A DNA stretch of 64,000 nucleotides. Source: Chloroflexota bacterium. Its GTDB lineage: Bacteria; Chloroflexota; Anaerolineae; CG2-30-64-16. The position numbers and the translations under genes are program-made. The stretch spans positions 9,845-73,844 of the forward strand of contig JAPLHB010000190.1 of the NCBI GenBank assembly GCA_026389845.1, read 5' to 3'. The notes beneath the pieces were generated by a model. It was not told the DNA's origin and made no database searches. It worked only from the letters and a program-made list of their open reading frames with translations. This document shows, piece after piece, positions 21,251 to 56,535 of this stretch (positions are counted from its first letter, which is position 1; each line of letters starts with the position of its first letter).

Positions 21251-21265
21251 TCAAAGGATGAAGCC

Positions 21266-24200
21266 ATGCTCAACCGAGAAGTCTTCACCAAGGATCCGAC
21301 GACATTCGCCATCCCCAACGACGGGGTCACGGTGGTGGGTGACCCGCAACGGCCCGAAGAGTGGGACGTCCTCCGCTATGAGCTGACCGCGTTCGTGTGC
21401 GAAGGCGAGTACCAGCGCGGCCTGGTGCGCGTGCTGTCCACCTTTCTCCAACACCTCTCACGGCCCAAGCAGCCGGCGGTCTGGGTGAGCGGCTTCTATG
21501 GCAGCGGCAAGTCGCACTTCGTGCGCGTGCTGCAGTACCTGTGGAACAACGTGACCCTGCCGGATGGCGCGCAGGCCCGCGGACTGACGAAGCTACCCGT
21601 CGAAGTGAACGAGCTGCTGACTGAGCTGACCACGGAGGGCAAGCGCCACGGCGGGCTGTGGGCGGCCGCGGGCAAGCTCGGCACAAGTCCAAGCATCCAA
21701 CTCGACATGCTCAAGATCCTCTTTCGGAGCGCGGGCCTGCCGGTTGACTATGCGCCGGCGCGCCTGGTCACGTGGCTGAGGCTGAAAGGGATCTACGATG
21801 CGGTCGCGGCCGGCGTCAGCCAGCGCGGCGCGGAACTGGCGTTCGAACTGGCCAACATGCATGTCTCGCTGGAGCTGGCCGAGAGCATCCACGACGCCTA
21901 TCCGGGCCTGGCCGCGGATGCGCTGGCCGTGTCGGATAAGCTCCAGGCGGAGTTCCCCGGCAAGACGGGGATTGACGATGACGAGATGTTGCAAGCCATG
22001 GAGGATGTGCTGCGTCTGCAATCCAGGGCGCCCGGCAAGCTGCCGCTGACCCTCCTGGTGCTGGACGAGCTGCAACAATCCATCGGCGAACAGCCGGACC
22101 GTGCGTTGGCAGTGCAGGAGATCGTGGAGGCGTGCTCCACCCGCTTCGGCAGCCGCATCCTCTTCGTGGGCACGGGCCAGGCTGCCCTGGAGGCGACGCC
22201 CCAGCTTGGCAAGCTGCAGGATCGCTTCACGGTCCGGGTGCCCCTCGAGGACAAGGATGTCGAGCGGGTCGTACGGGAGGTGGTGCTGCGCAAAGCGCCG
22301 GACAAGGTACCGGCCTTGCAGGCCGTCCTCGATGCGGCCAGCGGCGAGATCAACCGGCATCTGGCCGGCAGCAAGATCGGGTCAACCAGCGCTGACAGCG
22401 GCGACCTGGTACCCGAATACCCGCTGCTGCCCACGCGGCGGCGCTTCTGGGAGCGGGCGCTGCGGGCCATTGATCGCGCGGGCACCGCCGCGCAATTGCG
22501 CACCCAACTGCGCGTGGTGCACGAGGCGGCGAAGGGAGTCGCAGCCCGACCGCTGGGCACCGTGGTCGGGGCGGATACCCTCTATGACCAACAAAAATCG
22601 GCCATGTTGTTGGGACGAGTCCTCCTGCCGGAGATCGCGGCCGCCATTGACGATTTGCGCAAGGATGGCTCGGCCGCGGGCGTGCTCAAGGCCCGGCTCT
22701 GCGCCCTGATCTTCCTGATCGGCGAGCTGCCGGAGATCGGCGTGGCCGCGCCCGGCTTGCGCGCCACCCCGGACACATTGGCTGATCTGCTGGTGGAGGA
22801 CCTGACCGCCGGCAGCGCGGCCCTGCGCGGCCAGATTCCGGGGCTGCTGACGCAACTGGTGGACGCCGGCGCGCTGATGGCCGTGGACGACGCCTACCAC
22901 TTGCAGACCCAGGAGAGCCGTGAGTGGACGCGCGTCTTCAACACACACACCAGCCGCATCAAGGCCGACGATGCGCGCATCGCGGCTGACCGATCCACCG
23001 CGCTCCGCGGCGCGGTGCAGGAGGCTGTGAAGAAGATCCGGCCGGTGCAGGGCGAAAGCAAAACGGTGCGGCGCTTCGAGTTCTATTTTGGTACCGATGT
23101 CCCGCTCGCCGGCGGTGCGTCCGCACCGGAGGCGGTGCCGGTGTGGGTGCGCGACGGCTGGTCGGCCTCCGAGAAGGCGTTCCGGGAGGAGGCCCAGGCG
23201 GCCGGTTCCAACAGCCCCATCGTGTTCATATTCCTGCCGCGCCTCGGCGATGAGGAGCTCAGATCCGCGCTGGCCGGGACCGCGGCCGCGGTGGCCACCA
23301 TCGAGGCCGAGCCGACCCCCAAGACGAGCCAGGAGGGCGCGGCGGCGCACCAGGCCATGGCCTCGCGCCTGACCTCGGAAGCCGAACGCGTGGCGGGGTG
23401 CGTCGCCGTCAGCATCGCCAACGCCCGGGTCTACCAGGGCGGCGGCAACGAGATCGCGGAGGGCAGCCTGGCCGCTGCGGTCGAGGCGGCCATCGGGAAC
23501 GCGCTGGCGCGGCTCTTCCCCAACTTCAAGCTGGCCGATGACGCCAACTGGGGCAAGGTGGTCAAGCGCGCCGGCGAGGGCGCCGGCGATCCGCTGTCGG
23601 GCCTCGGCTACACCGGCAACGCCGAGGACCATCCGGTCTGCAAAGAAGTGCAGACCTTCCTGGGGATCGGGGTGAAAAAGGGGGCCGAGGTCCGCAAGCA
23701 TTTCGGCGGCGCGGGCTACGGCTGGGGTGGCGATGCCATTGACGGCGCCCTGTTGGCCCTGGTCGCCGGCAATACGGTGCGGGCCGAGCGCAACGGCCAG
23801 CCGCTGGCCGCCAAACAGATCATCCAGTCGCAGGTCGGCGTCACGGAGTTCAAGAACGAGGCCGTGATCATCACCGCGGCGCAGCGGATCGGCGTGCGCA
23901 AGCTGATCCAGGATCTGGGCCTGGCCGTCAAGAACGGGGAGGAAGCCCAGGCGATCCCGCTGGTGCTCCAGAAGCTGTGTGACCTGGCGGCCGAGGCCGG
24001 TGGCCCGCCGCCGTTGCCCGAAAAGCCGTCCGTCGAAGCCATCAAGGAACTGCAGGCGCTGAGCGGCAACGAGCAGTTCGCCGCCGCGTTCGACGCACGG
24101 GAGACGCTGCTGGCTCAGCAGCGCGCCTGGGGCCAGGCCAAGACCGCCAAAGACGCGCGGCTGCCCCAGTGGGGGGTGCTGGGGCGGCTCCTGGCCCATG

Positions 24201-24733
24201 CGACCGGGCGGCCGGCCGCCTACACCGTCCGGCCGCAGGTCGAAGCGATCACCGCGCAACGTCTGCTCCTGGCCGAGCCGGACCCCGTCAAACCGTTGCA
24301 CGATGCCTTGACGACCGACCTCCGCAAGGCTGTCCAGGATGCCAGGCAGCGCGTCGTGGATGCCCGCGACCGGGAATTAGCTGCGCTGCGCGAGACGGAT
24401 GAGTGGCGCAAGCTCAGCGACGAGCAGTGGCGGGAGATTCTGCACGCCCAGGGGTTGGGGCCGATCGCGGAGCTGCACGCCGGCACCGATGACCTGCTGC
24501 TGGCCGCGCTGGACGCCAAACCGCTGGAGGCCTGGGCGACTGAGGCGCTGGTGGTCCCCACGCGCATGCGGCAGGCGCGCGAGCAGGCAGCCAAACTGCT
24601 GGAGCCGAAGGCCGTGCGCGTGCGGCCGAAGTCTGCGACGCTGAAGTCAGCAGCCGAAGTGGATGAGTACCTGGGTGTGCTGCGGGCAGAGATCATGGCG
24701 CATATCGAGGAAGGGAAGCCGGTGATTGTGTGA
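21266..24733 (+). CDS. brxC: BREX system P-loop ATPase BrxC
   Basis: Walker A GFYGSGKSH near the N-terminus; ~1150-aa size and position. Start refined to ATG 21266 (AAGGA RBS). Confidence 0.85.
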   Translation: MLNREVFTKDPTTFAIPNDGVTVVGDPQRPEEWDVLRYELTAFVCEGEYQRGLVRVLSTFLQHLSRPKQPAVWVSGFYGSGKSHFVRVLQYLWNNVTLPDGAQARGLTKLPVEVNELLTELTTEGKRHGGLWAAAGKLGTSPSIQLDMLKILFRSAGLPVDYAPARLVTWLRLKGIYDAVAAGVSQRGAELAFELANMHVSLELAESIHDAYPGLAADALAVSDKLQAEFPGKTGIDDDEMLQAMEDVLRLQSRAPGKLPLTLLVLDELQQSIGEQPDRALAVQEIVEACSTRFGSRILFVGTGQAALEATPQLGKLQDRFTVRVPLEDKDVERVVREVVLRKAPDKVPALQAVLDAASGEINRHLAGSKIGSTSADSGDLVPEYPLLPTRRRFWERALRAIDRAGTAAQLRTQLRVVHEAAKGVAARPLGTVVGADTLYDQQKSAMLLGRVLLPEIAAAIDDLRKDGSAAGVLKARLCALIFLIGELPEIGVAAPGLRATPDTLADLLVEDLTAGSAALRGQIPGLLTQLVDAGALMAVDDAYHLQTQESREWTRVFNTHTSRIKADDARIAADRSTALRGAVQEAVKKIRPVQGESKTVRRFEFYFGTDVPLAGGASAPEAVPVWVRDGWSASEKAFREEAQAAGSNSPIVFIFLPRLGDEELRSALAGTAAAVATIEAEPTPKTSQEGAAAHQAMASRLTSEAERVAGCVAVSIANARVYQGGGNEIAEGSLAAAVEAAIGNALARLFPNFKLADDANWGKVVKRAGEGAGDPLSGLGYTGNAEDHPVCKEVQTFLGIGVKKGAEVRKHFGGAGYGWGGDAIDGALLALVAGNTVRAERNGQPLAAKQIIQSQVGVTEFKNEAVIITAAQRIGVRKLIQDLGLAVKNGEEAQAIPLVLQKLCDLAAEAGGPPPLPEKPSVEAIKELQALSGNEQFAAAFDARETLLAQQRAWGQAKTAKDARLPQWGVLGRLLAHATGRPAAYTVRPQVEAITAQRLLLAEPDPVKPLHDALTTDLRKAVQDARQRVVDARDRELAALRETDEWRKLSDEQWREILHAQGLGPIAELHAGTDDLLLAALDAKPLEAWATEALVVPTRMRQAREQAAKLLEPKAVRVRPKSATLKSAAEVDEYLGVLRAEIMAHIEEGKPVIV

Positions 24734-24911: not shown

Positions 24912-25469
24912 ATGCCTGGGCTTGTCGTAGATGCCACCGGCAACGATCTCACCTACCGGATTATCGGCGCGGCCATGCGGGTGCATAACCGATTGGGGCC
25001 AGGGTATAAGGAAGAAGTGTATGAGCGGGCGCTGGCTGCGGAGTTAGAAACAGAAGGCGTACCGGTCGAAACGCAGTATCGGGTTGAGGTCTACGATCAG
25101 GGGATCCTGGTCGCGCTGTTTTTCCTGGATCTCTTTGTGGCCCGCACTGTCGTCGTAGAGGTCAAGGCCTTTGCTCATCAGCTCACGAACGATGAGCGCG
25201 CGCAGGTCATCAACTACTTGAAGGCTACCGGCGCGGCGGTGGGCCTGCTGTTCAACTTCGGCCGGCGCAGGCTGGAGTTCCCGCGCATCTTCCCCGGCGC
25301 GGCGGCCACGGGAGACGATTTGCCGCAACGCCTGGGGCGTGATAATGTCAAGAAGCGTGCCGTGCACGAGTTTGGGGCCGGGCCGCCGTCCACACCCGAT
25401 GCCAGACGCGAGAGTGGCGGGGGCCGGGCCGGGCCGCCGTCCACGAATGAAACACGAATACGCGAATAA
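24912..25469 (+). CDS. GxxExxY family protein (PD-(D/E)XK-like)
   Basis: N-terminal IIGAAMRVHNRLGPGYKEEVYERAL (GxxExxY) and VEVK motifs. The true protein is probably ~130 aa; the 3' tail of the ORF reads into the repeat array. Confidence 0.55.
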   Translation: MPGLVVDATGNDLTYRIIGAAMRVHNRLGPGYKEEVYERALAAELETEGVPVETQYRVEVYDQGILVALFFLDLFVARTVVVEVKAFAHQLTNDERAQVINYLKATGAAVGLLFNFGRRRLEFPRIFPGAAATGDDLPQRLGRDNVKKRAVHEFGAGPPSTPDARRESGGGRAGPPSTNETRIRE

Positions 25470-25752
25470 TGACGGGCGGCCATTCGTGGATTCGTGACGG
25501 ATTCGGGGACGGCGACGACCCGACGCGAGAGCAGCGGGGGCCGGGCCGGGCCGCCGTCCACGAATGGGACACGAATTCACGAATAGCGGCGGGCGGCCAT
25601 TCGTGGATTCGTGACGGATTCGGGGACGGCGACGACCCGACGCGAGCGTAGCGGGGCCGGGCCGCCGTCCACGAATGAAACACGAATTCAAGAATAACGA
25701 CGGGCGGCCATTCGTGTATTCGTGGCGGATTCGTGGACGGCGACGACCCGGC
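25411..25752. repeat. tandem array of three ~118-bp palindromic repeat units
   Basis: Units begin near 25411, 25530 and 25648. Each contains the inverted (CACGAAT)3 arms and a GGGCCGGGCCG spacer-like GC stretch. There is no unique spacer content. Confidence 0.6.
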
Positions 25753-25781
25753 CTCCTCCCACAGACCCAAGAATAGGAACC

Positions 25782-28700
25782 ATGCCATCCCTACCCACCG
25801 ACCTCCGCAAAACCCTTGAAAATGCCATCAACGCGGCCCGGCGGGCCGCGGAGGAGGCGGCGCGCGCCGCGTTGACCACGCTGGCCGTCGCCCGCGACGA
25901 CCCGTTCGCGACCATGGACGAGCCGCAGCGCCAACTGCGCCGCGGCCTGCGCGCGGTGGCGCGCCGACTGGGCGATGACACAAAGTCCGACGCGTTGCCC
26001 CTCCTGACCCACGAGGTCGCCTACGAGCAGTGGCACCGCATGTTGTTCGCTCGCTTCCTGGCCGAGAACGATCTGCTGATGCACCCCTCTGGTGTCGCAG
26101 TGTCGCTGGCGGATTGCGCGGAACTGGCCCCTGACGAAGGCGCGGCCGACGCCTGGGACCTGGCCGCGCGCTACGCGGCTGCGATGTTGCCCGGCATCTT
26201 CCTGGCGGACGATCCGACCGTCCAGGTGCGCTTTGCGCCGGAGGGCCGCCAGCGGCTCGAAGCGATCCTGGCCGGCCTGCCGCCCGCGGTCTTCACCGCC
26301 GACGACGGCCTGGGGTGGGTCTACCAGTTCTGGCAGACGGACAAGAAGCGTGAAGTGAACGCCAGCGGCCGCAAGATCGGCGGGGCCGACCTGGCGCCGG
26401 TGACGCAGCTCTTCACCGAAGACTACATGGTGCGCTTCCTGCTGGAGAACTCGCTCGGCGCGTGGTGGGCGGCGCGCCACCCGGATAGTCCGCTGGTGAA
26501 GGAGTGGGGTTATTTACGGTGGGTGGACGAGGAGTCAGGAGTCAGGAGTCAGGGAGCAGGAGGCAGCGACGGCAATACGCAATACGCAGTACGCAGTACG
26601 CAATACGCAGTACGCAATACGCCGTCCCGCGTCCCCGCCGCCGGCGCCTTCCCCGGCTGGCCCGACCGCGCGGCGCAGGTGACGATGATGGATCCCTGCG
26701 GCGGGTCGGGGCATTTCGTGGTGGCCGAGTTCGGCATGATGCTGCGCATGCGGATGGAGGAGGAGGGGCTGAGCGCGTCCGCGGCCGGCGACGCGGTGAT
26801 CCGCGATAACCTCTTCATGCTGGAGCTGGACCCCCGCTGCACGCAGATCGCGACCTTTGCGCTGGCGTTAGCGGCCTGGAAGAGCGGCGGCTACCGGCCG
26901 CTGCCGACCCCCAACATCGCCTGCTCCGGCATCGCAGTGACGGGACAGCTCGAGGACTGGCTGCGCCTGGCCCGCGGGGACGAACGGCTGCGCACCGCGC
27001 TGGAACGACTGCACAAGCTCTTTACGAACGCGCCCACCCTGGGCAGCCTGATCAATCCCGCGGACGTGCCGCTGAGCGAGCGGATGTTCAGCGCCGACTA
27101 CGAGGAGGTGGCGCCGCTGTTGGGGAAGGCGTTGGCAAAGGAGCGGGACGATCCGGCCGCGGCCGTGTTGGGCGCTGCGGCGGAGGGGGTGGCGAAGGCA
27201 GCGAAGCTGCTGGCAGGGCAGTACACGCTGGTGGCGACGAATGTGCCGTATCTGGGACGCAGCCTCCAGACAGAAACGCTCAAGAACTTTGCAGACAGGG
27301 TTTTTCCAGTCTCAAGGGCTGACCTGGCCACCGTTTTTGTGGAGCGTTCTCTGTCATTTACAGACTCGGGTGGTACCTGTGCGGTTGTCACCCCTCAGAA
27401 CTGGCTGTTTTTGAAATCGTATGAAGAACTTCGCAGGAAATTGCTTCAGTCCCAGTCGTGGAACCTGCTTGCGAGATTGGGTGCTCAAGCATTTCAGACC
27501 CCGATGTGGGATTTCAATGTTGGGCTATTTATCGTCACACACCGTCCACCGGCAGAAAACCATGAAGTGGGAGGAACGGACGTCTCACGTAGCCGAAAGC
27601 CATCGGTCAAGGCCGATTTGTTGCGGAATGACCCAATTCGGTTCGTTAACCAAGAGAGCGAGCTACGAAATCCCGATACGAGGATCACGCTCGAAAAAGC
27701 CAACCTTGGTGCGTTGCTCCTGCATTATGCAGACGGGCTGCAGGGAATCTCCCCGGCAGACTATCCCAGGTTCGGTCGTTGCTTTTGGGAGCTACCAAGA
27801 CTAATCGAGGGCTGGCGATGGTATCAAGGCACGGTTAGTTCTACGATGCCCTTTGGTGGACGCGAAAGAGTTCTCTGGTTTGACGCTCTCTTGCGAGCAG
27901 CACAGGAGCTTGGTTCTGCAATTCGAGGCCGAGCTGCGTGGGGCAAATGGGGTGTGGCAATAAGCCAGATCGGGAAACTCTCCGCGAACTTGTACACAGG
28001 CGATTTGTTCGACAACAACTTGGCGGCTCTGATTCCACACGATCAGACTTTGCTTCCCGCGCTGTGGGCTTATTGTCAGTCCCCGACCTTCCACGACCAA
28101 GTCAGGCGAATCGATCAGAAGCTCTACGTCCAGAATGCTACGCTGGTGAAAATTCCTTTCGACCTTGACTACTGGCAGCAAGTCGCAGACGCGGCCGGCC
28201 CCCTCCCCGAGCCGTACTCCGACGACCCCACCCAATGGCTCTTCAACGGCCACTCCGCGGGCGCCACCGAGCCGCTGCAGGTGGCCGTGGCGCGGCTGTT
28301 GGGCTATCGCTGGCCGCAGCAGGCCCAGGACCACCTCGGCGCCCACGCCGATGCGGATGGCATCGTCTGCCTGCCCGCGGTGGGCGGCGAACAGCCGGCG
28401 GCCGAACGCCTGCGCGCGCTCCTGGCCGCAGCCTTCGCCAATCCGCAATCCCTGCCCAACACCGCAGACGCCGGGCACGCAATACGCAGTACGCAATACG
28501 CCGGATGGTCGGCCGCTGTCCAGGAGCAGTTGCTCGCCGCGGCCGGATTCCCCAGCAAGACCCTGGACGACTGGCTGGCCGACGGCTTCTTCCCGCAGCA
28601 CTGCCGCGTCTTCCACAACCGGCCCTTCATCTGGCATGTCTGGGACGGCCGCAAAGATGGCTTCTCGGCGTTGGTCAACTACCACAAGCTGGATCGCGCT

Positions 28701-29084
28701 GTCCTGGAGAAACTGATCTATACTTACCTCGGCGCGTGGATCACCCGCCAGCGCGATGACCGCGACGCCGGCGCCCCGGCCGCGGAGGGGCGGTTGGTGG
28801 CCGCGCTGGCGCTGCAGAAGAAGCTGATCGCCATCCTGGAGGGGGAGCCGCCGTACGACATCTACGTGCGCTGGAAGCCGCTCCATCAGCAGCCCATCGG
28901 CTGGGCGCCGGACCTCAACGACGGCGTGCGGCTCAACATCCGGCCATTTGTCACAGCGGGCGTGCTGCGGAGCCGGTTCACGATCAATTGGAAGGTGGAC
29001 CGCGGCACGAATCCGGACGGCAGCGAGCGGATCAATGATCGGCACGTCACGCGGGCGGAGAAGCTGGCGGCGCGGGGAAAGTGA
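25782..29084 (+). CDS. pglX: BREX-1 adenine-specific DNA methyltransferase PglX
   Basis: ~1100 aa; DPCGGSGHF (motif I) region; C-terminal block conserved with the remnant at 31331-31568; canonical position. Start refined to ATG 25782. Confidence 0.85.
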   Translation: MPSLPTDLRKTLENAINAARRAAEEAARAALTTLAVARDDPFATMDEPQRQLRRGLRAVARRLGDDTKSDALPLLTHEVAYEQWHRMLFARFLAENDLLMHPSGVAVSLADCAELAPDEGAADAWDLAARYAAAMLPGIFLADDPTVQVRFAPEGRQRLEAILAGLPPAVFTADDGLGWVYQFWQTDKKREVNASGRKIGGADLAPVTQLFTEDYMVRFLLENSLGAWWAARHPDSPLVKEWGYLRWVDEESGVRSQGAGGSDGNTQYAVRSTQYAVRNTPSRVPAAGAFPGWPDRAAQVTMMDPCGGSGHFVVAEFGMMLRMRMEEEGLSASAAGDAVIRDNLFMLELDPRCTQIATFALALAAWKSGGYRPLPTPNIACSGIAVTGQLEDWLRLARGDERLRTALERLHKLFTNAPTLGSLINPADVPLSERMFSADYEEVAPLLGKALAKERDDPAAAVLGAAAEGVAKAAKLLAGQYTLVATNVPYLGRSLQTETLKNFADRVFPVSRADLATVFVERSLSFTDSGGTCAVVTPQNWLFLKSYEELRRKLLQSQSWNLLARLGAQAFQTPMWDFNVGLFIVTHRPPAENHEVGGTDVSRSRKPSVKADLLRNDPIRFVNQESELRNPDTRITLEKANLGALLLHYADGLQGISPADYPRFGRCFWELPRLIEGWRWYQGTVSSTMPFGGRERVLWFDALLRAAQELGSAIRGRAAWGKWGVAISQIGKLSANLYTGDLFDNNLAALIPHDQTLLPALWAYCQSPTFHDQVRRIDQKLYVQNATLVKIPFDLDYWQQVADAAGPLPEPYSDDPTQWLFNGHSAGATEPLQVAVARLLGYRWPQQAQDHLGAHADADGIVCLPAVGGEQPAAERLRALLAAAFANPQSLPNTADAGHAIRSTQYAGWSAAVQEQLLAAAGFPSKTLDDWLADGFFPQHCRVFHNRPFIWHVWDGRKDGFSALVNYHKLDRAVLEKLIYTYLGAWITRQRDDRDAGAPAAEGRLVAALALQKKLIAILEGEPPYDIYVRWKPLHQQPIGWAPDLNDGVRLNIRPFVTAGVLRSRFTINWKVDRGTNPDGSERINDRHVTRAEKLAARGK
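26531..26626 (+). repeat. two adjacent heptanucleotide tandem-repeat tracts inside pglX: (GAGTCAG)3-5 then (AATACGC/AGTACGC)7
   Basis: Direct reading of 26531-26626; encodes ...SGVRSQGAGGSDGNTQYAVRSTQYAVRNT... inserted just before motif I. A shorter (3-unit) copy of the ACGCAATACGCAGTACGC tract recurs at 28481-28501. Confidence 0.7.
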
Positions 29085-29174
29085 GTCAGTAAGCCTATCG
29101 GATTGTGGTAGAATAGGCGCGACGCTCGGAGCGAGTCTCGAGACATCTGCACAGCCAAGGAAGGAGGCCCCCAC

Positions 29175-30275
29175 ATGCAGATTCGCAGGGTCATTCTTAA
29201 ACAAGTTCGCAACTTTCGCGATTTCGACCGCTCCTTCGAGGACGGTTGGACCGGCCGCGTGCCTGACGCGCTGCTGCTGATGGGTTCAAACGGCAGCGGC
29301 AAAAGCACGCTGTTGGACGCGATGGCAGCCCTCTGGCAGGGCCTGGCAGACTCGCTGCATGGGGGAAATCCCCTGACCGATGCCGTAGGGTCGCGCCTTT
29401 TGCAGTCGGCGGACCTGGCTGCAATGGAAGTGATAGGATTCGAGCAAGAGTCACTATGGATTTATGCGGGCAGACAGGATCCCGCCCGGGAATTCGCGGC
29501 CGCCCATGCCAACGCGCACCGGTTTGGGTTGCAGTACCATTATTTCCTTTCCCCGGAAGAGTTGCGCGGCACGCACATCAGCGGCGTCTACACGCCGCCC
29601 GGACTCCCGGAGCGAGATAGCGAGGGTGGACGAAAGCAGGCCGCGATCTGGACCGAACGACTGACCGACCGACTGACCGAGAACCAACTCGGAAAGCGGG
29701 CCGATCTGCCGAACCTCGTGTACCTGGCCAGTGAAAACCGGCTGTTGCTTCCGTTGACCGAGAAATTCAGTGTCCAACCGGAGCCGGAGGAGTACCAGTG
29801 GCTGGCCCGCTACGAGCCGGTCGCCAGCCGCCGAGGTAGTCTGCAGAACTACCTCTACAACTTGAAGGTCGTGGATGAGGTCAGGTTCAACGAGATCGCG
29901 TCACAGTTCAGTGCGTTCCTGGTCGGCAAACGGCTGAATGGCTTCGACCGGCGCACCGGCAACCTGTTGGTGCAGGTTGGCAACGGAGAAAGCCACCCGA
30001 TCGAGGAACTGAGTAGCGGCGAGAAGCAAGTGCTCCTGATGCTGGCAACGATCACCCGCTGGCTGTGGCCCGGCGGCATCGCGTTGGTTGACGAGCCGGA
30101 CCTTCATCTGCACGTCTCGTTGGCGAGGGCGTTCGTCAGCCACCTGCGGCGGATGGTAGAGGAGAAAGGTGGCCAACTCATCATTGCTTCCCACATGCCG
30201 GAACTTTGGGAGGAATTCACCGACTCTCACCGGGTGCGGCTGAACGCATCCGATGAAAAGGGGCAGACCAAGTGA
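29175..30275 (+). CDS. AAA15/ABC-type ATPase, PARIS AriA-like
   Basis: Walker A GSNGSGKST, ABC signature-like LSSGEKQ, Walker B IALVDEPDLHLH; 366 aa; immediately followed by a DUF4435/Toprim gene with a 4-bp overlap. Strong RBS AAGGAAGGAGG. Confidence 0.55.
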   Translation: MQIRRVILKQVRNFRDFDRSFEDGWTGRVPDALLLMGSNGSGKSTLLDAMAALWQGLADSLHGGNPLTDAVGSRLLQSADLAAMEVIGFEQESLWIYAGRQDPAREFAAAHANAHRFGLQYHYFLSPEELRGTHISGVYTPPGLPERDSEGGRKQAAIWTERLTDRLTENQLGKRADLPNLVYLASENRLLLPLTEKFSVQPEPEEYQWLARYEPVASRRGSLQNYLYNLKVVDEVRFNEIASQFSAFLVGKRLNGFDRRTGNLLVQVGNGESHPIEELSSGEKQVLLMLATITRWLWPGGIALVDEPDLHLHVSLARAFVSHLRRMVEEKGGQLIIASHMPELWEEFTDSHRVRLNASDEKGQTK

Positions 30276-31096
30276 GCCAGACACCACGGTGGGTCAGAGA
30301 TATTGAGAGTCTGGCTCGTGGCCTTCCCGTTCTGTTGGTCGAAGGCGAGGACGACGTCACCCTGCTCGGGTATTTTCTGGGCCAGCACGCTCCCGGCTGG
30401 CAGCAGCGCCTCTACCTGGCGGCGGCAAACGGCAAGGGCCACGTCGTTAGCGGCGTGGCCGTCCACCGTCCTGACTGGATCGGAATTGTGGATCGCGATG
30501 AATGGAGCCCAGCCGACGTCCAAGCGGCCGCGGCACGCTCTCCGCGACTGCACGTCCTGCCGCGCTTCTGCACCGAATCCTACTTCTGCGATCCGGCCGA
30601 GCTTTGGGCCGCCCTCCCGGCGCAACAGCAGGCACGCGCGGGGGATAACCTCCTTGCGCTGGCCGGGCCGATTCACGCCAAACTTCCCGACTGGGTGGCA
30701 CACGGCGCGATGTGGCGCGTCCTGCGCGACCTCTACAAGGAGGCGCGGCTGCCGGCCAAGCTAGAGGATAGTCCGGTGACCGACGAAGCGACCATCCGTA
30801 GCATTCTCACCGACTGGCACGCCCGCCTTGCTCCCGACCCGGTCTTGGCGCACTATCGCAATGAATTGGGCAACGCCCAAACACTCGCTGCGGCGGCACA
30901 ACTGCACGAATACATCCACGGCAAGAAGTTTTTCAACCAAGTCGTGGTCCAGGTGTTGGATGGGTTGTTCGCCGGTAAGGGCGCCGACGACTGGTTACAA
31001 AAGTTGCGCGATGCCCCGATCCTGTCGCCGCCCGATTTGGTTGCGCTGTTCGATCAAATCCTGGCCCAGTTGCCCAGACAGGCCCCTCATGAGTGA
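30272..31096 (+). CDS. DUF4435 (OLD-family Toprim) protein, PARIS AriB-like
   Basis: Toprim catalytic motifs VLLVEGEDD (Glu) and GIVDRDEW (DxD); 274 aa; coupled to the upstream ATPase. Confidence 0.55.
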   Translation: MSQTPRWVRDIESLARGLPVLLVEGEDDVTLLGYFLGQHAPGWQQRLYLAAANGKGHVVSGVAVHRPDWIGIVDRDEWSPADVQAAAARSPRLHVLPRFCTESYFCDPAELWAALPAQQQARAGDNLLALAGPIHAKLPDWVAHGAMWRVLRDLYKEARLPAKLEDSPVTDEATIRSILTDWHARLAPDPVLAHYRNELGNAQTLAAAAQLHEYIHGKKFFNQVVVQVLDGLFAGKGADDWLQKLRDAPILSPPDLVALFDQILAQLPRQAPHE

Positions 31097-31568
31097 GCCA
31101 ATTGCGTTTCTCGAAGCGCTGGTTGCCGCGCTGCAACGCGCCGGCAGCTATAACAAAAACGACCAGTGCCCACCGGCGGCCATCCTCTGGCCCGATAAGG
31201 AGCGGCAGTGGGAACCTTTGTTGCCGGTGCTGCGTGAGCGGCTGCCGCTGCTGACCCTCGGCTCTTACGCACCAACTCAACGCACTGGCCCGGCCTATTG
31301 GCTGCGCTGCATGATCGCGCGAACCCTGCCCTACGACATCTACGTGCGCTGGAAGCCGCTCCAGCAGCAGCCCATCGGCTGGGCGCCGGATCTCAACGAT
31401 GGGGTGCGGCTCAATATCCGGCCGTTCGTGACCGCCGGCGTGCTGCGCAGTCGGTTCACGATCAATTGGAAGGTGGATCGGGGGACGAACCCGGATGGGA
31501 GCGCGCGGGTGAATGATCGGCACCTGACGCGCAGCGAGAAACAGGCCGTGCGCCGGTCATACCCATAG
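31089..31568 (+). pseudogene. chimeric remnant: pglZ 5' end (~80 codons) fused in frame to pglX 3' end (~78 codons)
   Basis: MSEPIAFLEALVAALQRAGSYNKNDQCPPAAILWPDKERQWEPLLP...MIARTLP is near-identical to the PglZ N-terminus (34294-). The following YDIYVRWKPLQQQPIGWAPDLNDGVRLNIRPFVTAGVLRSRFTINWKVDRGTNPDG... is near-identical to the PglX C-terminus (28850-29084). Confidence 0.65.
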
Positions 31569-31690
31569 GCATGACTTGACGGCTGGTCTGGCGTAAGTTT
31601 TGCGCAATCACAGGCTGAATCGCTTGCGGGCTGACAAAGTCAGCATTTGGTATCGCCGTCATAAGTACCTAAACTCAAGGAGGTAGGATC

Positions 31691-33718
31691 ATGATCATGG
31701 TGATCGGAATAGCTCTGCTCATCGTCGTGTTGGTGGTGCTGGCGTTGCTCGCCTTGTCGGGCATCCGCTTCATCCCCAACAACCGCGTTGGCATCGTCGA
31801 GAAGCGCTTCGGCGCCAAGTCCGTCGAGACCGGCTTTATCGCACTCAAGGGAGAGGCTGGCTTCCAACCCAAGCTGCTGCGCGGGGGCCTGCACTACCTG
31901 ATGCCGATCCAGTATCTCGTCCACCGTTCGCCCCTGGTGACCATCACCCAGGGCAAGATCGGCTACGTCTTTGCGCGCGACGGGCATCCGCTGGTGCCGA
32001 TGCAGGTGCTGGCTTCGAACGTCACCGCCAATGACTTTCAGGATGTGGCCGCGTTCCTGCAAGACGGCGGCCAGCGCGGGCCACAGCGTCAGATCCTGCG
32101 CGAAGGCACCTACGCCATCAACCTGGCGCAGTTTATCGTCATCACCGAGGAGAAGGTCTACTACCTGCCGCTCAACCGCGCCGAAGAAGGGGTCATACAG
32201 GATATGGCCAAGGTGATCGCCGAGCGTGACGGCTTTCGGCCGGTAGTGCTCAAGGATCAGGACGACAAGACCGGCATTGTGACGATCCACGACGGACCCT
32301 CGTTGCCGCCGGACGAGATCATCGCGCCCATCGTGGGCGGCGACCCAACCAACGTGGAGACGTACCACAATAACTTCCAGGCGCCTGACCGGTTCCTGAA
32401 GGCCGGCGGCCTGCGAGGGCGCCAGTTGCAGGTCTTGGTCGAAGGCACCTACTATCTCAACCGGCTGTTTGCCACGGTGGAGATGATCCCCAAGACCATC
32501 ATCGAAATCGGGACCGTCGGCGTGGTGGTTTTCTACACCGGCGAGGCCGGCCGTGACCTGTCGGGCGAGGACTATCGGCATGGTGAGTTGGTGGCGAGAG
32601 GCCATCGCGGCGTGTGGGACGCGCCGCTCATGCCGGGCAAGTACGCGTTCAACACCTACGCCGGCAAGGTCGTGGCGGTCCCCACTACCAACGTCATCCT
32701 GAAGTGGATCCGAGGCCAGGTCGGCTCGCACCACTTCGACGAGAACCTGGCGGAGATCTCGTTGATCACCAAGGACGCCTTCGAGCCGTCGCTGCCGCTG
32801 TCGGTGGTCATGCACATTGACTACCGCAAGGCTCCCCTGGTGGTCCAGCGCTTCGGCGACGTGAAACGGCTGGTCGAGCAGACCCTCGACCCCATGGTGT
32901 CGGCCTACTTTAAGAACATCGGCCAGACGCGCACGCTGATCCAGCTCATCCAGGAGCGCGGCAACATCCAGCAGATTTCGAGTCAGGAGATGAAGGAAAG
33001 GTTCACGCACTATAACCTGGAGCTGGAAGAGGTGCTGATCGGCACGCCGGTCGCGATGGCCGAGGACAAACAGTTCGAGCTTATCCTGAACCAACTGCGC
33101 TCCCGGCAGATCGCCGTAGAGCAGATCGAGACCTATGGACGGCAGCAGATGGCGGCAGGGAAGGAACGGGAGCTGCGCGAGGCACAGGCGCGCGCTGATC
33201 AGCAGCGCAACATCACCGAATCGGAGCTGAGCATCACGGTGCAGAGCAACCAGGGCAAGGCCGAATACGCCCGGGCGCTGCAGCAGGCGGCGCAGATCCG
33301 CGCCCTGGCCGAAGCTGAGGCCGAAAAGACCGCCCGCGTCGGCATCGGTCAGGCCATCGCCATCGAGGAACAGGTGGCGGCCTATGGCGGCCCGCAGTTC
33401 CAGGTCACGCAGCAGGTGATGAACCGCTTTGCCGAAGCGGTGCAGCAGTCGAAAGTGGACGTGGTGCCGCGCGTGGTGATTGGCGGCGCCGGGGGCACTG
33501 CGACCAGCAGCGGCGTGATGGAAGGGCTGTTGACGCTCCTGCTATCCGACAAGCTAGGCCTGGAAGTGAGCGCCGCTCGGCAGCGAGAACCGAATCCGCA
33601 AGCGGACCAGTTGCGGGCTCAGATCCGCGAGGGCCTCAAGGAGAGCCGGCAGGGCACAGCCGGGCCAGTGCCGCCCGCCCCGGCCCCGGCTGGCCCGTCG
33701 GGGGCGAAGCCGGCTTAG
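31691..33718 (+). CDS. SPFH/band-7 (flotillin-like) membrane protein with long C-terminal coiled coil
   Basis: N-terminal TM helix, SPFH-like IRFIPNNRVGIVEKRFG region, Ala/Glu/Gln-rich coiled coil and C-terminal Pro/Ala tail; AAGGAGG RBS 8 nt upstream. Confidence 0.55.
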   Translation: MIMVIGIALLIVVLVVLALLALSGIRFIPNNRVGIVEKRFGAKSVETGFIALKGEAGFQPKLLRGGLHYLMPIQYLVHRSPLVTITQGKIGYVFARDGHPLVPMQVLASNVTANDFQDVAAFLQDGGQRGPQRQILREGTYAINLAQFIVITEEKVYYLPLNRAEEGVIQDMAKVIAERDGFRPVVLKDQDDKTGIVTIHDGPSLPPDEIIAPIVGGDPTNVETYHNNFQAPDRFLKAGGLRGRQLQVLVEGTYYLNRLFATVEMIPKTIIEIGTVGVVVFYTGEAGRDLSGEDYRHGELVARGHRGVWDAPLMPGKYAFNTYAGKVVAVPTTNVILKWIRGQVGSHHFDENLAEISLITKDAFEPSLPLSVVMHIDYRKAPLVVQRFGDVKRLVEQTLDPMVSAYFKNIGQTRTLIQLIQERGNIQQISSQEMKERFTHYNLELEEVLIGTPVAMAEDKQFELILNQLRSRQIAVEQIETYGRQQMAAGKERELREAQARADQQRNITESELSITVQSNQGKAEYARALQQAAQIRALAEAEAEKTARVGIGQAIAIEEQVAAYGGPQFQVTQQVMNRFAEAVQQSKVDVVPRVVIGGAGGTATSSGVMEGLLTLLLSDKLGLEVSAARQREPNPQADQLRAQIREGLKESRQGTAGPVPPAPAPAGPSGAKPA

Positions 33719-33828
33719 TGCCTATCCGAATAATAGCAGCGCGGGCTCCCATGCCCGCAACCGGCGGCGGGCGAAAGTACAGCCGATGTCTGGGAGCCGC
33801 CTCCGCTGGTTATTCGGATAGGCTGAGC

Positions 33829-34024
33829 TATACTCGGCACGGTCACAAAATGCGCTTGTAGGCGGCTGTCATTCTGAGCGGGTCTACCCCTGACTTCTCG
33901 TGACGGCGAGCATCCAGCGAAGAATCCGTCCCGCGACGAGACCCCTTCGACTGCGCTCAGGGCAGGCTCTTCGCTGGATTTTCACCGCGACGCACTTCAC
34001 GGGACCAACCCGCTCAGGGTGACA
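33829..34024. repeat. MITE-like repeat, copy A (inverted termini TGTCATTCTGAGCGGGT / ACCCGCTCAGGGTGACA)
   Basis: Shares >85% identity in blocks with copies at 34076-34241, 43091-43308, 46622-46755 and 49619-49768. Internal palindromes ATCCAGCGAAGAATC / CTTCGCTGG and CTTCGACTGCGCTCAGG. Confidence 0.6.
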
Positions 34025-34075
34025 AAGCCAAGGTTTCAGCGCCGCGAAAAACGCAGTCTATGCCCGTGTGCAGTA

Positions 34076-34241
34076 TATACTCGGCACGGTCACAAAATGC
34101 GCTTGTAGGCGGCTGTCATTCTGAGCGGGTCTACCCCGTGTCGTGCGTGGCGGCGAGTCTCTAGCGAAGGGTCTTGTTGCAGTATGGAACGGATTCTTCG
34201 CTGGTTTCACGCCGCAACGAGGAGTCTGGGGCTAACCCGCT
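34076..34241. repeat. MITE-like repeat, copy B (short variant)
   Basis: Same 5' block ATACTCGGCACGGTCACAAAATGCGCTTGTAGGCGGC plus inverted termini TGTCATTCTGAGCGGGTCTACCCC ... GGGGCTAACCCGCTCAGAATGACA. Confidence 0.6.
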
Positions 34242-34293
34242 CAGAATGACAATTATTCACTCATGAAATAGCTGAACCGATCAGTGAGGCGCC

Positions 34294-36612
34294 ATGACTG
34301 ATAGCATGACCTTCCTTGATGCGCTGGCGCAAGCTATCTATCGCGCGGGCAGCTACAACAAGAATGACCAATGCCCGCCGGCCGCGATCCTCTGGCCCGA
34401 CAAGGAGCGCCAGTGGGAGCCGCTGCTGCCGGCGCTGCGCGAGCGGCTGCCGCTGCTGACTCTCGGCCCCTACGCGCCCCAAGAGCGCAGCGGCCCGGCC
34501 TGCTGGCTGCGCTGCATGATCGCGCGCACGTTGCCCGACGACATCCTGCCGGCCGACGCCGCCCCGATCATCTATCTGCCGGGGGTCAGCCGCGCCGAAA
34601 TCCGCGCCATCGAGGAGTGCCCCAAGCCGCTCCAGCCGCTCGCCGAGCTTCAGTACCGCGGCGTGCTGTGGACGCACAAGAACGGCCGCGACTGGACGGT
34701 CGCCGGCTTCTTGCAGAGTACCGACAGTGGCCTGGGCATCGCCGTCAGCGGCGACACAGCCACGAAGGAAGCGCTTGGTCGGGCGTTGCTCAAGCTGGCT
34801 TACGAACCGGTAGCTCGCCTGAAGAAGGAGGCGCCGCTCCGTGCGGCCTTCTTCGACGAATTGCTCAACCCGGATCAAGTACGACGTCTGTTGCTCTGGC
34901 TTAATGACCCCGATAGCTACCCAAAGACCCTGGCCCAGGCCGAGTGGTACGCATTTTGCGACCTCTGCAAGCGCACATACGGCCTTCACCCCGTGGACGA
35001 CGGCGCGCTGATCGCGGCGGAACGTCTCGGGACTTCGCAGGGCGCCTGGGAGATCGTCTGGGACCGCTTCAACGAGAATCTGGAGGGGTATCCCAACCTG
35101 CCGGAACTCCTGCGCCGGGCGCGGCCGGAACGATCTATCTTTGAAAAGAGCCTGCCCTACTGGCCGCAGGACACCGAAACGGCCGAGGGGGACTTGCGCG
35201 CGGCGCTGCTGGCGTTGGGCGATGCTTCACCGACCGGCGCGCGCGAGGGCATCGCGCAGCTTGAGGCCGAGCACGGCGCGCGCCGCGGCTGGATCTGGGC
35301 CAGGCTGGGCCGGGCTCCACTCGCCGCCGCGCTGGCACATCTGGCGGCCCTGGCCCAGGCAACCGAGAAAACGCTCGGCGGCGCGACTGTGGCCGACGTA
35401 GCCGCGGCTTACACTGGAGGGGGCTGGCAGGCAGATGCCGCCGTGTTGGATGCGTTGGCCGCGGTTGAGGCCGCGGAGGACGTGGCAGCAGTGAAGGCCG
35501 CGCTCCTGCCGCTCTACCGCCCGTGGCTGGAAAAAGCAGCGGCGGCGCTCCAGGCCGCCATCCTCGGCAACCCGGTAGCGAACTATGGGACGACGACGCC
35601 ACCGGCAGCCGATGCGGGCACGTGCATCTTGTTCAGCGATGCCTTGCGTTTCGATGCCGGCATGAGGCTGGTGGCCGCGCTGGAGCGCCGGGGCCTGTCA
35701 TGTACCACCGGGTGGCGCCTGGCCGCCCTGCCAACCGTCACGCCGACAGCCAAGCCCGCGGTTTCGCCTGTCGCTGAACTGATGATTGGCAGCAGCGAGC
35801 CGAGCCTGACCCCGGTGGTCAAAGCGACCGGCGCGAGCAGTACGGTTGCCACCTTGCGCAAGCTGCTCGAAGGGGCCGGCTACCAGATCCTGACCGGGGA
35901 TGCCCTCGGCGATCCGAGCGGGATGGCGTGGACCGAGTTGGGCGCGATAGACCAGTACGGCCACGAGCACGGTTGGGAGGTGGCGCATCATCTGCCGGGC
36001 GAGCTGCGCAACCTCGAAAGACGGATCGACGCGCTGCTGAGCCACGGCTGGCAGCAGGTGATGGTCCTCACCGACCACGGCTGGCTCCTGCTCCCCGGCG
36101 GCCTGCCGAAGATCGAGCTGAAAGAGCATCTGACCGTGCTCCGCAAGGGCCGCTGCGCCGCGCTCAAAGAGGGCGCGCAGACCGATCAGCACACGATCCC
36201 GTGGCATTGGGACAAGAACGTGCGTATCGCCGTAGCGTCGGGCATCGCCTGTTACGAGGCCGGCAAAGAGTACGAGCACGGCGGCATCAGCCCGCAAGAG
36301 TGCGTCGTGCCGGTCATCGCGGTCTCAAGGCCGGTTGCCACCATCGCCCAAGAGACCCAAATCACCGGCGTCACCTGGAAGGGGCTGCGCTGCTCGGTCT
36401 CAGTGAGTGGGGCGGGTGCGGGCATGACCGCCGACATCCGCACCAAGGCGGGCAACGCGGCCACGTCGCTCACCACGCCGCGACCCGTCGAGACCGGCGC
36501 CGCGTCACTGTTGGTCGAGGATGACGACCAACTGGGCGCGGCTGCGTTCGTCGTGGTCCTTGCAGCAGATGGGTCGCTCGTGGCACAAACACAGACCACG
36601 ATTAGCGGATAA
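34294..36612 (+). CDS. pglZ: BREX-1 alkaline-phosphatase-superfamily protein PglZ
   Basis: 772 aa, PglZ-type phosphatase domain (TDHGW, QYGHEHG metal-binding segments); canonical position before brxL. Confidence 0.85.
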   Translation: MTDSMTFLDALAQAIYRAGSYNKNDQCPPAAILWPDKERQWEPLLPALRERLPLLTLGPYAPQERSGPACWLRCMIARTLPDDILPADAAPIIYLPGVSRAEIRAIEECPKPLQPLAELQYRGVLWTHKNGRDWTVAGFLQSTDSGLGIAVSGDTATKEALGRALLKLAYEPVARLKKEAPLRAAFFDELLNPDQVRRLLLWLNDPDSYPKTLAQAEWYAFCDLCKRTYGLHPVDDGALIAAERLGTSQGAWEIVWDRFNENLEGYPNLPELLRRARPERSIFEKSLPYWPQDTETAEGDLRAALLALGDASPTGAREGIAQLEAEHGARRGWIWARLGRAPLAAALAHLAALAQATEKTLGGATVADVAAAYTGGGWQADAAVLDALAAVEAAEDVAAVKAALLPLYRPWLEKAAAALQAAILGNPVANYGTTTPPAADAGTCILFSDALRFDAGMRLVAALERRGLSCTTGWRLAALPTVTPTAKPAVSPVAELMIGSSEPSLTPVVKATGASSTVATLRKLLEGAGYQILTGDALGDPSGMAWTELGAIDQYGHEHGWEVAHHLPGELRNLERRIDALLSHGWQQVMVLTDHGWLLLPGGLPKIELKEHLTVLRKGRCAALKEGAQTDQHTIPWHWDKNVRIAVASGIACYEAGKEYEHGGISPQECVVPVIAVSRPVATIAQETQITGVTWKGLRCSVSVSGAGAGMTADIRTKAGNAATSLTTPRPVETGAASLLVEDDDQLGAAAFVVVLAADGSLVAQTQTTISG

Positions 36613-36741: not shown

Positions 36742-38787
36742 ATGGAACTGGATAGGTTGGACCAACTCGCGGCCGAAGCATTCACGGGGTACGTCGTCCG
36801 CAAGGACCTGGCTCTGCGGTTTCGCGGCCAGTATCCCGTGCCGACCTACGTCGGCGAGTTCCTGTTGGGACGCTACTGCGCCAGCACCGACCCGGCCGAG
36901 ATCGCGGAAGGGCTGGAGATCGTCGAGCGCCAGATGCGCGAGCGCACCGTGCGGCCGGGCGAGGAAGAGTTGTTCAAGTCACGGGCGCGCGAGCGCGGCT
37001 CAGTCAAGCTGATTGATCTGATCACCGCGCGGCTGGACACCGCGACCGACTCCTACCTGGCCACGCTGCCCAGCCTGCGCTTGCGCGACGTGCGCATCGA
37101 CGCGGAGACGGTCGCGGGCAACGAGCGCATGTTGACCGGCGGCTTCTATGCCGAAATCCAGCTTGAGTACGACGCCGCGATTGCCCAGGAACGCAACGGC
37201 CGGCCCTTCGGCATCACCGCCTTGCGCCCCATCCAGCTTTCCAAGCGCGGCGTTTCGGATGACCTGGCCCGCGGCCGCGCGGCCTTCACCACCGAGGAAT
37301 GGCGGCAACTCCTGTTGCGGAGCGTCGGCTTCGAGCCGGAGCAGTTCACCCGGCGGGCACAAGACATTCTGCTCCTGCGTATGGTCCCGTTCGTCGAGCG
37401 CAACTTCAACGTGGTGGAGCTTGGTCCGCGCGGCACCGGCAAGTCACACCTCTACCAGCAAATCTCCCCCTACTCGCACCTGGTCTCCGGCGGCAAGGCC
37501 ACCGTGGCGCAGATGTTCGTCAACAACGCCACGGGCCAACGCGGCCTGGTGTGCCTCTACGACGTGGTCTGCTTCGATGAGGTCTCCGGCATCGCCTTCG
37601 ACCAGCGGGACGGCGTCAACATCATGAAGGGCTACATGGAGGCCGGGGAGTTCAGCCGGGGCCGCGAGAACATCCGCGCCAGTGGCAGCATCGTCATGGT
37701 GGGCAACTTCGAGGTGGACGTGGAGCATCAGCAGCGGATCGGCCACCTGCTGGGCCCGCTCCCGCCGGAGATGCGCAACGACACCGCCTTCATGGATCGC
37801 ATCCACGCCTACCTGCCCGGCTGGGACGTGCCCAAGCTCGACCGCGCCCTGTTCACCGAGCACTTCGGACTGGTGAGTGACTTCCTGTCAGAGGGTTGGT
37901 CACAACTGCGTGCCGAGAACCGGCTGCCGGTCGTCGCGAGCCGCATCCGCTACGGCAGCGCGATCAGCGGCCGCGATGCCAACGCCATCAACCACACCGT
38001 CAATGGCCTGCTCAAGCTGCTCTATCCCGACCGCGAGATGGCGATCAGCGATGAAGACCTGGCATGGGCCGTGGAACTGGCGCTGGAGTGTCGCCGCAGG
38101 GTGAAGGAGCAGCAGAAGCGCATCGGCAGCGCAGAGTTCCGCAACACCCACTTCAGCTATCAACTCGGCGTCGAAGGGGTCGAGAAGTTCGTCGTGACAC
38201 CGGAGCTACAAAGCACCCAGGCCATCGGCAGCGATCCGCTGCCGCCGGGCCAGGTGTGGGGCATCAGCCCCGGCGGTCCGGACGAAGGCGCCGGCCTCTA
38301 CCGGATTGACGTCAACGTGGGGCCGGGCGCCGGCGTGCGCATCGTCAACTTCCCCGCGCCGGGGCCGTTCCGCGAGAGCATCAAGTACGGCGAGCAGAAC
38401 CTGATCATGCGTGCCCGCGAGCTCGTCGGCGACCGCGACCCGCGCCAGCACGAGTTCACCGTGCAACTGCGCGCCTTCGACGCGGCCAAGACCGGAGCGT
38501 TCCTGGGCCTGCCCGCGCTGCTGGCATTCTGCAGCGCGCTGCTGGGCAAGAGCCTGAAGGGTGGCCTGATCGCCGTCGGCGCGCTCAACCTGGGCGGCGG
38601 CCTCGACCCGGTCTACAACGCCGTCAACGTTGCCGAGTTGGCGATCGAGAAGGGCGCGTCCATGCTGCTCATCCCCATCTCCGCCCGCCGGCAGTTGAAC
38701 GAGCTGTCGGACGAGATGGCGATGAAGCTGACGATCCTGTTCTATGCGGACGCGCGCGAGGCGCTGTTGAAGGCGCTGGGGGATTAG
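36742..38787 (+). CDS. brxL: BREX system Lon protease-like protein BrxL
   Basis: 681 aa; AAA+-like P-loop GPRGTGKSH plus C-terminal Lon protease-like domain; terminal gene of the BREX-1 operon. Confidence 0.85.
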   Translation: MELDRLDQLAAEAFTGYVVRKDLALRFRGQYPVPTYVGEFLLGRYCASTDPAEIAEGLEIVERQMRERTVRPGEEELFKSRARERGSVKLIDLITARLDTATDSYLATLPSLRLRDVRIDAETVAGNERMLTGGFYAEIQLEYDAAIAQERNGRPFGITALRPIQLSKRGVSDDLARGRAAFTTEEWRQLLLRSVGFEPEQFTRRAQDILLLRMVPFVERNFNVVELGPRGTGKSHLYQQISPYSHLVSGGKATVAQMFVNNATGQRGLVCLYDVVCFDEVSGIAFDQRDGVNIMKGYMEAGEFSRGRENIRASGSIVMVGNFEVDVEHQQRIGHLLGPLPPEMRNDTAFMDRIHAYLPGWDVPKLDRALFTEHFGLVSDFLSEGWSQLRAENRLPVVASRIRYGSAISGRDANAINHTVNGLLKLLYPDREMAISDEDLAWAVELALECRRRVKEQQKRIGSAEFRNTHFSYQLGVEGVEKFVVTPELQSTQAIGSDPLPPGQVWGISPGGPDEGAGLYRIDVNVGPGAGVRIVNFPAPGPFRESIKYGEQNLIMRARELVGDRDPRQHEFTVQLRAFDAAKTGAFLGLPALLAFCSALLGKSLKGGLIAVGALNLGGGLDPVYNAVNVAELAIEKGASMLLIPISARRQLNELSDEMAMKLTILFYADAREALLKALGD

Positions 38788-46755: not shown

Positions 46756-46776
46756 GAATGACAGATCTGGCAGCGG

Positions 46777-53204: not shown

Positions 53205-53224
53205 GCATCATGGGGAGAGCTACC

Positions 53225-53434: not shown

Positions 53435-53460
53435 TCCGACTTCTGAATGCCGAGGTATTC

Positions 53461-56535
<3,075 letters not shown>

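Follow-up and report, generated by a model that had tools for sequence, protein, structure and literature searches.

A conserved SPFH-domain gene in the variable cargo slot of a Chloroflexota BREX locus

An SPFH gene lies between pglX and pglZ

We analyzed a 64,000-nucleotide stretch of DNA from a Chloroflexota bacterium (contig JAPLHB010000190.1; hereafter the window), which carries a complete type 1 BREX (bacteriophage exclusion) locus with a 675-amino acid SPFH/flotillin-like gene between pglX and pglZ. BrxA, BrxB, BrxC, PglX, PglZ, and BrxL all matched PADLOC models, with E-values of 1e-72 to 0. From pglX to pglZ, the order of features is ariA and ariB, a chimeric pglZ-5'::pglX-3' pseudogene, the SPFH gene, and two copies of a MITE/REP (miniature inverted-repeat transposable element/repetitive extragenic palindromic) element (Table 1). 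A preliminary description of this DNA had regarded the SPFH gene as a candidate stand-alone defense gene or an uncharacterized BREX accessory. Its account of the open reading frame (ORF; ATG start, 675 amino acids) was exact, and the gene is indeed a lone one, with no nuclease, NTPase, or NfeD partner adjacent to it in the window. The results presented below suggest that it is probably an ordinary conserved membrane-scaffold gene that was captured as a cassette and has the same role here as elsewhere, making it a passenger and not an immune effector.

Table 1 Features of the BREX locus and its cargo slot in the window
Feature	Position	Strand	Remarks
BrxA	19801-20622	+	Strong PADLOC match
BrxB	20615-21163	+	Strong PADLOC match
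BrxC	21200-24733	+	Strong PADLOC match
PDDEXK_3 gene	24912-25469	+	In the brxC-pglX gap
PglX methyltransferase	25722-29084	+	Strong PADLOC match; its 3' end forms the left arm of the slot
PARIS-like pair	29175-31096	+	First cargo cassette; AriA (OLD/ABC ATPase) 29175-30275, AriB 30272-31096
Scar, foreign pglZ 5' fragment	31089-31331	+	Codons 1 to ~84; 78% identical to resident pglZ, 82% to sister loci
Scar, foreign pglX 3' fragment	31332-31568	+	Last ~77 codons and stop; 86% identical to resident pglX, 86-89% to sister loci
Spacer, pglX scar to ribosome-binding site of the SPFH gene	31569-31673	+	Without homologous sequence in relatives or sister loci; small hairpin 31630-31644
Shine-Dalgarno region	31674-31690	+	CAAGGAGGTAGGATC; directly 5' of the SPFH ATG; sole upstream sequence common to close relatives
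SPFH/Band-7 'flotillin family' gene	31691-33718	+	675 amino acids, ATG start; NCBI MCX6032519.1, 'SPFH domain-containing protein [Chloroflexi bacterium]'
Internal duplication within the SPFH gene	32029-32462	+	32029-32123 versus 32368-32462, 71% DNA identity
MITE/REP copy 1	33867-34024		Terminal inverted repeats GTCATTCTGAGCGGG / CCCGCTCAGGGTGAC; long hairpin, -87.6 kcal/mol, z = -6.8
MITE/REP copy 2	34114-34251		Hairpin-forming; with 37 nt of left flank gives a perfect 62-nt direct repeat, 33829-33890 / 34076-34137
PglZ	34294-36612	+	Strong PADLOC match; its 5' end forms the right arm of the slot
BrxL, Lon-like	36742-38787	+	Strong PADLOC match; last gene of the BREX locus

The pglX-pglZ gap is a variable cargo slot

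We compared the window with ten loci representing five sister BREX lineages, whose PglZ proteins are 70-83% identical to that of the window. The pglX-pglZ gap contains a 2044-amino acid AAA_22 protein and a 431-amino acid protein followed by GmrSD in L170/171, DUF5131 followed by an ABC/AAA_21 ATPase with a 161-amino acid partner in L172-174, Fic in L175/176, a helix-turn-helix protein followed by an ABC ATPase in L177/178, and a 150-amino acid protein together with a 1457-amino acid unknown protein in L179. The ABC ATPase modules among these are of the OLD type. Because each sister lineage holds different content, the gap is a genuine variable cargo slot. The SPFH gene itself was found in none of the ten sister loci.

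Four of the six lineages, including that of the window, carry pglZ N-terminal and/or pglX C-terminal scars between successive cargo modules, and the breakpoints are all different. The scar of L170/171 (L170:6762-7115) comprises pglZ amino acids 1-54 and the last ~68 amino acids of pglX, that of L172-174 (L172:8214-8363) pglZ amino acids 1-50 alone, and that of L177/178 (L177:8628-8771) the last ~50 amino acids of pglX alone. No such scars were present in the sister loci with a single module. The differing scars between modules therefore indicate recurrent cassette stacking through conserved arms. Gene callers label the scars as hypothetical ORFs of 49-120 amino acids.

In the window, the two halves of the scar meet within a microhomology of 9 nt, TACGACATC (31332-31340); the resident pglX also reads TACGACATC, and the resident pglZ reads GACGACATC. 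The stop codon of AriB and the start codon of the pglZ scar overlap (ATGAGTGA, 31089-31096), as in the cargo-pglZ junctions of the sister loci. Since this native AriB-pglZ overlap is kept, the PARIS (phage anti-restriction-induced system) pair once directly preceded a pglZ and came with its own pglZ arm. The SPFH gene is likewise framed as a cassette in the manner of the sister cargoes, with the pglX-3' scar as its left arm and the resident pglZ as its right arm. The sister-locus cargoes, scars, and arms thus bear out the earlier proposal that the gene occupies a defense-cargo slot bounded by a junction remnant and MITE/REP repeats.

The simplest model for these features is one in which the cargo unit is a cassette consisting of a pglX-3' arm, the cargo, and a pglZ-5' arm. 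Cassettes would be swapped by homologous recombination via the conserved pglX-3' and pglZ-5' arms, and stacking would result from the illegitimate joining of two cassettes. In our reconstruction of the order of events, an SPFH cassette with its own pglX-3' arm would have been joined to a PARIS cassette with its own pglZ-5' arm at the 9-nt microhomology. The SPFH gene would formerly have followed immediately after a pglX as the cargo of a donor BREX locus, and its present location in the pglX-pglZ slot would be due to the exchange and stacking of cassettes there.

The SPFH gene is intact and under purifying selection

The database contains more than 8000 homologues of the SPFH protein, the best 120 of which are 73-94% identical over the full length. 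Pairwise ratios of nonsynonymous to synonymous substitution (dN/dS) between the gene and its relatives were 0.10-0.28, with the window copy at ~0.13, the same as copies elsewhere. Because of the many full-length homologues and the low dN/dS, the ORF represents a genuine gene rather than an open frame arising by chance in GC-rich sequence. A 484-amino acid ORF on the opposite strand (31640..33094) was rejected as a shadow ORF of GC-rich DNA. In a family alignment of 32 homologues, the mean column identity was 78% and variation was limited to the transmembrane segment and the C-terminal tail; the window copy keeps every family-invariant residue. It is thus intact and under purifying selection like its relatives.

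The gene adjoins the pglZ/pglX pseudogene fragments, and no consensus promoter was found for it: the spacer upstream of its ribosome-binding site contained no sigma-70 consensus, a promoter and terminator scan of 28900-34400 gave nothing above chance, and the same was true of an Rfam scan of 31000-34400. On these grounds, the gene might be regarded as decaying or no longer functional, a remnant that accompanied the recombination scars. This interpretation is effectively refuted by the full-length ORF, the canonical ribosome-binding site, the retained invariant residues, the dN/dS of ~0.13, and the confident structural model described below.

The protein is predicted to be a membrane-anchored SPFH scaffold

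The protein matched the Pfam Band_7 (PF01145)/SPFH model at amino acids 271-457 with 46.5 bits against a cut-off of 23.6, which places it in this family. We utilized AlphaFold2 to predict its structure as a monomer. Using an alignment of 84 diverse sequences (30-89% identity), the model reached a mean pLDDT (predicted local distance difference test) of 82.9 and a pTM (predicted template modeling score) of 0.66, with pLDDT mostly above 90 across amino acids 1-460; an alignment of 32 close homologues alone gave a pLDDT of 36. The protein consists of a transmembrane anchor (amino acids 2-23), β-rich vault-like repeats (25-270), the SPFH domain (271-457), and a continuous helix (460-564), followed by C-terminal helices and a Pro-rich, disordered tail. 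The model thus shows the SPFH α/β fold, an N-terminal membrane anchor, and a long helix of 105 residues after the SPFH domain. The positive charges following the transmembrane helix suggest a cytoplasmic orientation. The duplicated segments within the gene encode the motif NxFQ..FL..GG.RG.Q..L.EGTY.iN in two successive β modules of ~113 amino acids. Three giant relatives of 1638-1802 amino acids (P0139, P0144, and P0147) match the N-terminal β module of the SPFH protein 10-12 times, an arrangement that recalls the repeat stack of the vault.

For this protein, PADLOC-DB v2 yielded no families at E ≤ 0.1, no NCBIfam model matched, and phmmer with the single sequence retrieved no PDB entry; a family profile was required, and its matches to flotillin-2 were only weak and in the coiled coil (E 2e-4). 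Compared with the SPFH cage formers (prohibitin, HflK/C, QmcA-YbbJ, stomatin, erlin, and flotillin-1/2), the protein has ~245 extra residues, forming two β modules, between the transmembrane helix and the SPFH domain. It also differs from them in having neither the Pfam flotillin C-terminal domain, as Pfam gave Band_7 only, nor an NfeD- or FtsH-type partner gene. An NfeD partner of the yqiJ/yuaF type was found neither in the window nor in the ten commonest annotated clusters of recurrent neighbors of the family.

The model of the window protein resembles the major vault protein in having stacked β repeats followed by an SPFH shoulder and then a cap helix. However, the major vault protein is soluble, whereas the window protein is anchored by a transmembrane helix and has two or three modules; the sequence identity is 11-15%, and Pfam found no Vault repeat in the window protein at E ≤ 0.1. 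The protein also appears similar to Escherichia coli YqiK and Bacillus subtilis FloT (COG2268) in being a membrane-associated SPFH protein with a coiled coil; JGI labels family members 'uncharacterized membrane protein YqiK', and NCBI labels them 'flotillin family protein' or 'SPFH domain-containing protein'. It differs from YqiK and FloT in that no NfeD gene adjoins it or recurs among its neighbors, and in having no NCBIfam match. The analogy to prohibitin, HflK/C, QmcA, stomatin, erlin, flotillin, and the vault shell makes it most likely that the protein oligomerizes into a large ring- or cage-like structure on the cytoplasmic side of the membrane, where it would corral or regulate membrane proteins, a function of the housekeeping type.

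The SPFH family is found among ordinary genes

We examined the gene neighborhoods of 169 homologue loci, including 80 from a genome scan and 80 more from a metagenome scan. The genome scan returned loci from 80 different Anaerolineae/Chloroflexota species genomes, one per assembly, with 68-96% identity. The window protein thus belongs to a family of membrane-anchored SPFH proteins that is strongly conserved in Anaerolineae. No BrxA, BrxB, BrxC, PglX, PglZ, BrxL, AriA, or AriB gene was found within 10 kb of the SPFH gene in any of the 169 loci, and L001 alone has a pglX scar. Together with its absence from the ten sister BREX loci, this means that no recurrence of the gene in BREX loci was found. 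Weak tblastn matches resembling BrxB near the SPFH gene in L019, L030, and L041 (E 5e-4 to 0.04) were discarded as noise, as they disappeared with a larger database.

Clustering of the flanking ORFs showed that the gene is partly syntenic with ordinary genes. In 30 loci, a Castor/Pollux-type RCK ion-channel gene of the same orientation immediately precedes it, at a median gap of 172 nt (e.g., L086:7985-9889), and may be a plausible client of the SPFH scaffold. Downstream, an ECF (extracytoplasmic function) sigma factor was found in 19 loci and a zf-HC2 anti-sigma factor in 15, and the loci with the channel gene often have such a pair. Further recurrent neighbors included aconitase, an ABC ATPase, and an MBL hydrolase. 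The nearest homologue, L010 (96% amino acid and 94% DNA identity), lies among TIM-barrel enzyme, LysM, LysE, and GNAT genes; the contexts in Longilinea arvoryzae and on a 3-Mb contig are metabolic; and Rhizobium chromid homologues with 60% identity lie between ligD and aromatic-catabolism genes. A search of the window for the usual flanking genes of the family, which would mark its ancestral position, returned only generic paralogues (ABC ATPases and two-component systems).

The homologues were not enriched beside known defense genes. Among the nearest neighbors, 5 of 146 matched PADLOC at 1e-8, and among the second-nearest (n = 143) such matches amounted to ~5-7% and were scattered and mostly generic, giving a rate of ~3-7% of neighbors. 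The preliminary description had proposed searching for this subfamily in other defense islands and BREX loci, and across the family the outcome was negative; in the close clade described below, defense-like contexts did appear. It had also held that a conserved flotillin in a syntenic, non-defense context would tell against a defense role. This is largely what we found, in ~170 Anaerolineae loci of 68-96% identity with partly syntenic ordinary neighbors, and the inference of a stand-alone defense gene or BREX accessory is for this reason unsupported.

Full-length homologues with 55-60% identity were also present in 86 plasmid records, including L180 (Rhizobium hidalgonense pPR19E02, 145447-147489). 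These include Rhizobium chromids (49 records) and Clostridium butyricum megaplasmids, and the proteins are annotated as 'flotillin family protein'. That homologues from different phyla are so similar suggests that the family spread horizontally long ago. Among phages, a 642-kb uncultured 'megaphage' (LR756502.1, 343898-345283) has a homologue with 34% identity over 74% of the protein, and more distant SPFH genes occur in three ~160-kb Vibrio phages. A phage origin of the window gene was rejected, since the only PHROG match was a remote one to a 'lipoprotein' and phage matches were at most 34% identical.

The closest relatives move as a single-gene unit

Several observations, most of them on the closest relatives of the window gene, weigh against its being an ordinary passenger. 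In this clade, with a DNA identity of 85-94% and a synonymous divergence (dS) of 0.18-0.44, none of 48 pairs with 85-97% gene identity shared flanks, compared with 121 of 147 pairs (82%) of equal identity elsewhere in the family. Homology between members was limited to the coding sequence plus at most ~85 nt upstream and ~40 nt downstream (window, L010, L009, L002, L090, L092, and L001). Since the flanks are never shared despite the low dS, the clade has been repeatedly relocated or transferred as a single-gene unit, a behavior typical of accessory or mobile genes. A search of the edges of the mobile unit for an attC-like motif, an inverted repeat, or a recombinase found none, the Shine-Dalgarno region alone being common to them.

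The surroundings of some clade members point in the same direction. In L001 (87% DNA identity), a decayed pglX fragment lies ~100 nt upstream of the SPFH gene; it corresponds to PglX amino acids 988-1034 at 57% identity, contains an in-frame stop, and its homology ends at the same GACATC site. A 1768-amino acid helicase and several toxin-antitoxin genes surround this locus. L002-5 adjoin an MmeI-type restriction-modification system and a DUF433/DUF5615 toxin-antitoxin pair. Three of the eight contexts of the clade were thus defense-like (the window BREX locus, L001, and L002-5), one had a HicB antitoxin only, one a PIN gene only (L090/91), and three were neutral; three of eight is too few to decide. 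The slot in the window is, moreover, otherwise filled with defense-type cargo, so guilt by association favors a defense role.

A mobile SPFH sub-lineage recruited as island cargo could have become a co-opted defense gene or BREX accessory. Such a protein could mediate abortive infection or superinfection exclusion at the membrane by blocking DNA injection or a holin, protect the membrane, or organize BREX/PARIS. The cassette arms that frame the gene in a verified defense-cargo slot, the pglX fragment of L001, the restriction-modification neighbors of L002-5, and the single-gene mobility of the clade all argue for this, and the SPFH genes of some large phages make a role at the phage-host interface conceivable. 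Like PARIS, BrxU/GmrSD, and auxiliary nucleases embedded in BREX, the SPFH gene lies between core BREX genes. However, those genes belong to recognized families recurring across BREX loci, whereas the SPFH gene is outside PADLOC and was found in the slot in the window only. The window copy has not diverged from copies in ordinary contexts, being 96% identical to L010 with an equal dN/dS, and the low family-wide rate of defense neighbors, the absence from all ten sister BREX loci, and the several clade contexts with no defense gene also speak against co-option. PARIS-like modules in BREX have been described (PMC12839542), and neither SPFH nor flotillin appears in that survey, a 2026 comparison of BREX-associated genes; our literature search on SPFH, flotillin, or Band-7 with BREX or defense islands found no report linking them. 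Because the close clade is unusually mobile and three of its eight contexts are defense or restriction-modification islands, we retain a defense role at a low but appreciable probability.

A more far-reaching proposal seems to us quite unlikely. According to it, the close clade (the window gene, L001, L002-5, and others) would be a mobilized, defense-specialized offshoot of the housekeeping scaffold, a membrane-anchored, vault-like SPFH cage encoded by a single gene that travels between BREX gaps and restriction-modification or toxin-antitoxin islands and acts at the membrane by excluding phage DNA, delaying lysis, or organizing BREX/PARIS.

Selection on the scaffold might also stabilize the locus with no part in immunity. 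If the gene were the only genomic copy of a beneficial housekeeping gene, its position would penalize deletions of BREX/PARIS. All 80 species-genome loci returned came from different assemblies, the window copy has an undamaged ORF and is subject to purifying selection, and the host-type MITEs accumulated alongside indicate residence in this genome, all of which would fit such a scenario. The frequent relocation of the clade, however, shows that the gene can be re-acquired elsewhere, and we regard this speculative scenario as very unlikely.

Implications for defense hotspots and SPFH scaffolds

If the gene is, as we favor, an ordinary scaffold gene carried as cargo, it is a reminder that verified defense hotspots also hold non-defense genes, and that inferences from position need a family-wide check. 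The recurrent scars and the single-gene mobility of the clade are the more interesting by-products of this analysis and may prove more useful than the gene. The pglZ-5'::pglX-3' scars illustrate how embedded systems build up and are reshuffled in BREX loci, a mechanism that could serve the systematic mining of cargo. The SPFH family represents an uncharacterized, widespread membrane-anchored architecture with vault-like wall modules, which bears on how SPFH and vault cages evolved. Should the defense reading be true, a membrane-scaffold class would be added to the anti-phage systems.

Other features of the window

The spacer between the SPFH gene and pglZ is occupied by the two MITE/REP copies. 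The terminal repeat GTCATTCTGAGCGGG matched seven times in the window, compared with 0.15 matches expected, and it is also found at ~43.1 kb (43127-43141) and ~46.7 kb (46630-46762).

The brxC-pglX gap is a second variable slot in the window, L172, L175, L177, and L179. It contains PDDEXK_3 in the window and in L172 (2834-3637), AAA_15 with a 161-amino acid protein in L175 (3622-5267), a 411-amino acid protein with DUF3800 in L177 (2319-4372), and PIN with two small ORFs in L179 (189-1774). The module of an ATPase and a 161-amino acid protein in this gap of L175 resembles that in the pglX-pglZ gap of L172, which suggests that cargo moves between slots.

The window PglZ is 100% identical to a database protein, P0271, from a Chloroflexi metagenome-assembled genome. 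The BREX locus is flanked by transporter genes upstream and by a gene for a PPDK-like enzyme downstream. A second defense locus (50289-60880) lies ~11 kb downstream of BREX; in it, a DrmD-like SNF2 helicase (E 9.5e-197) is accompanied by a type III methyltransferase (E 2.5e-239), an unknown protein of 347 amino acids, and a type III restriction enzyme (E 1.6e-237).

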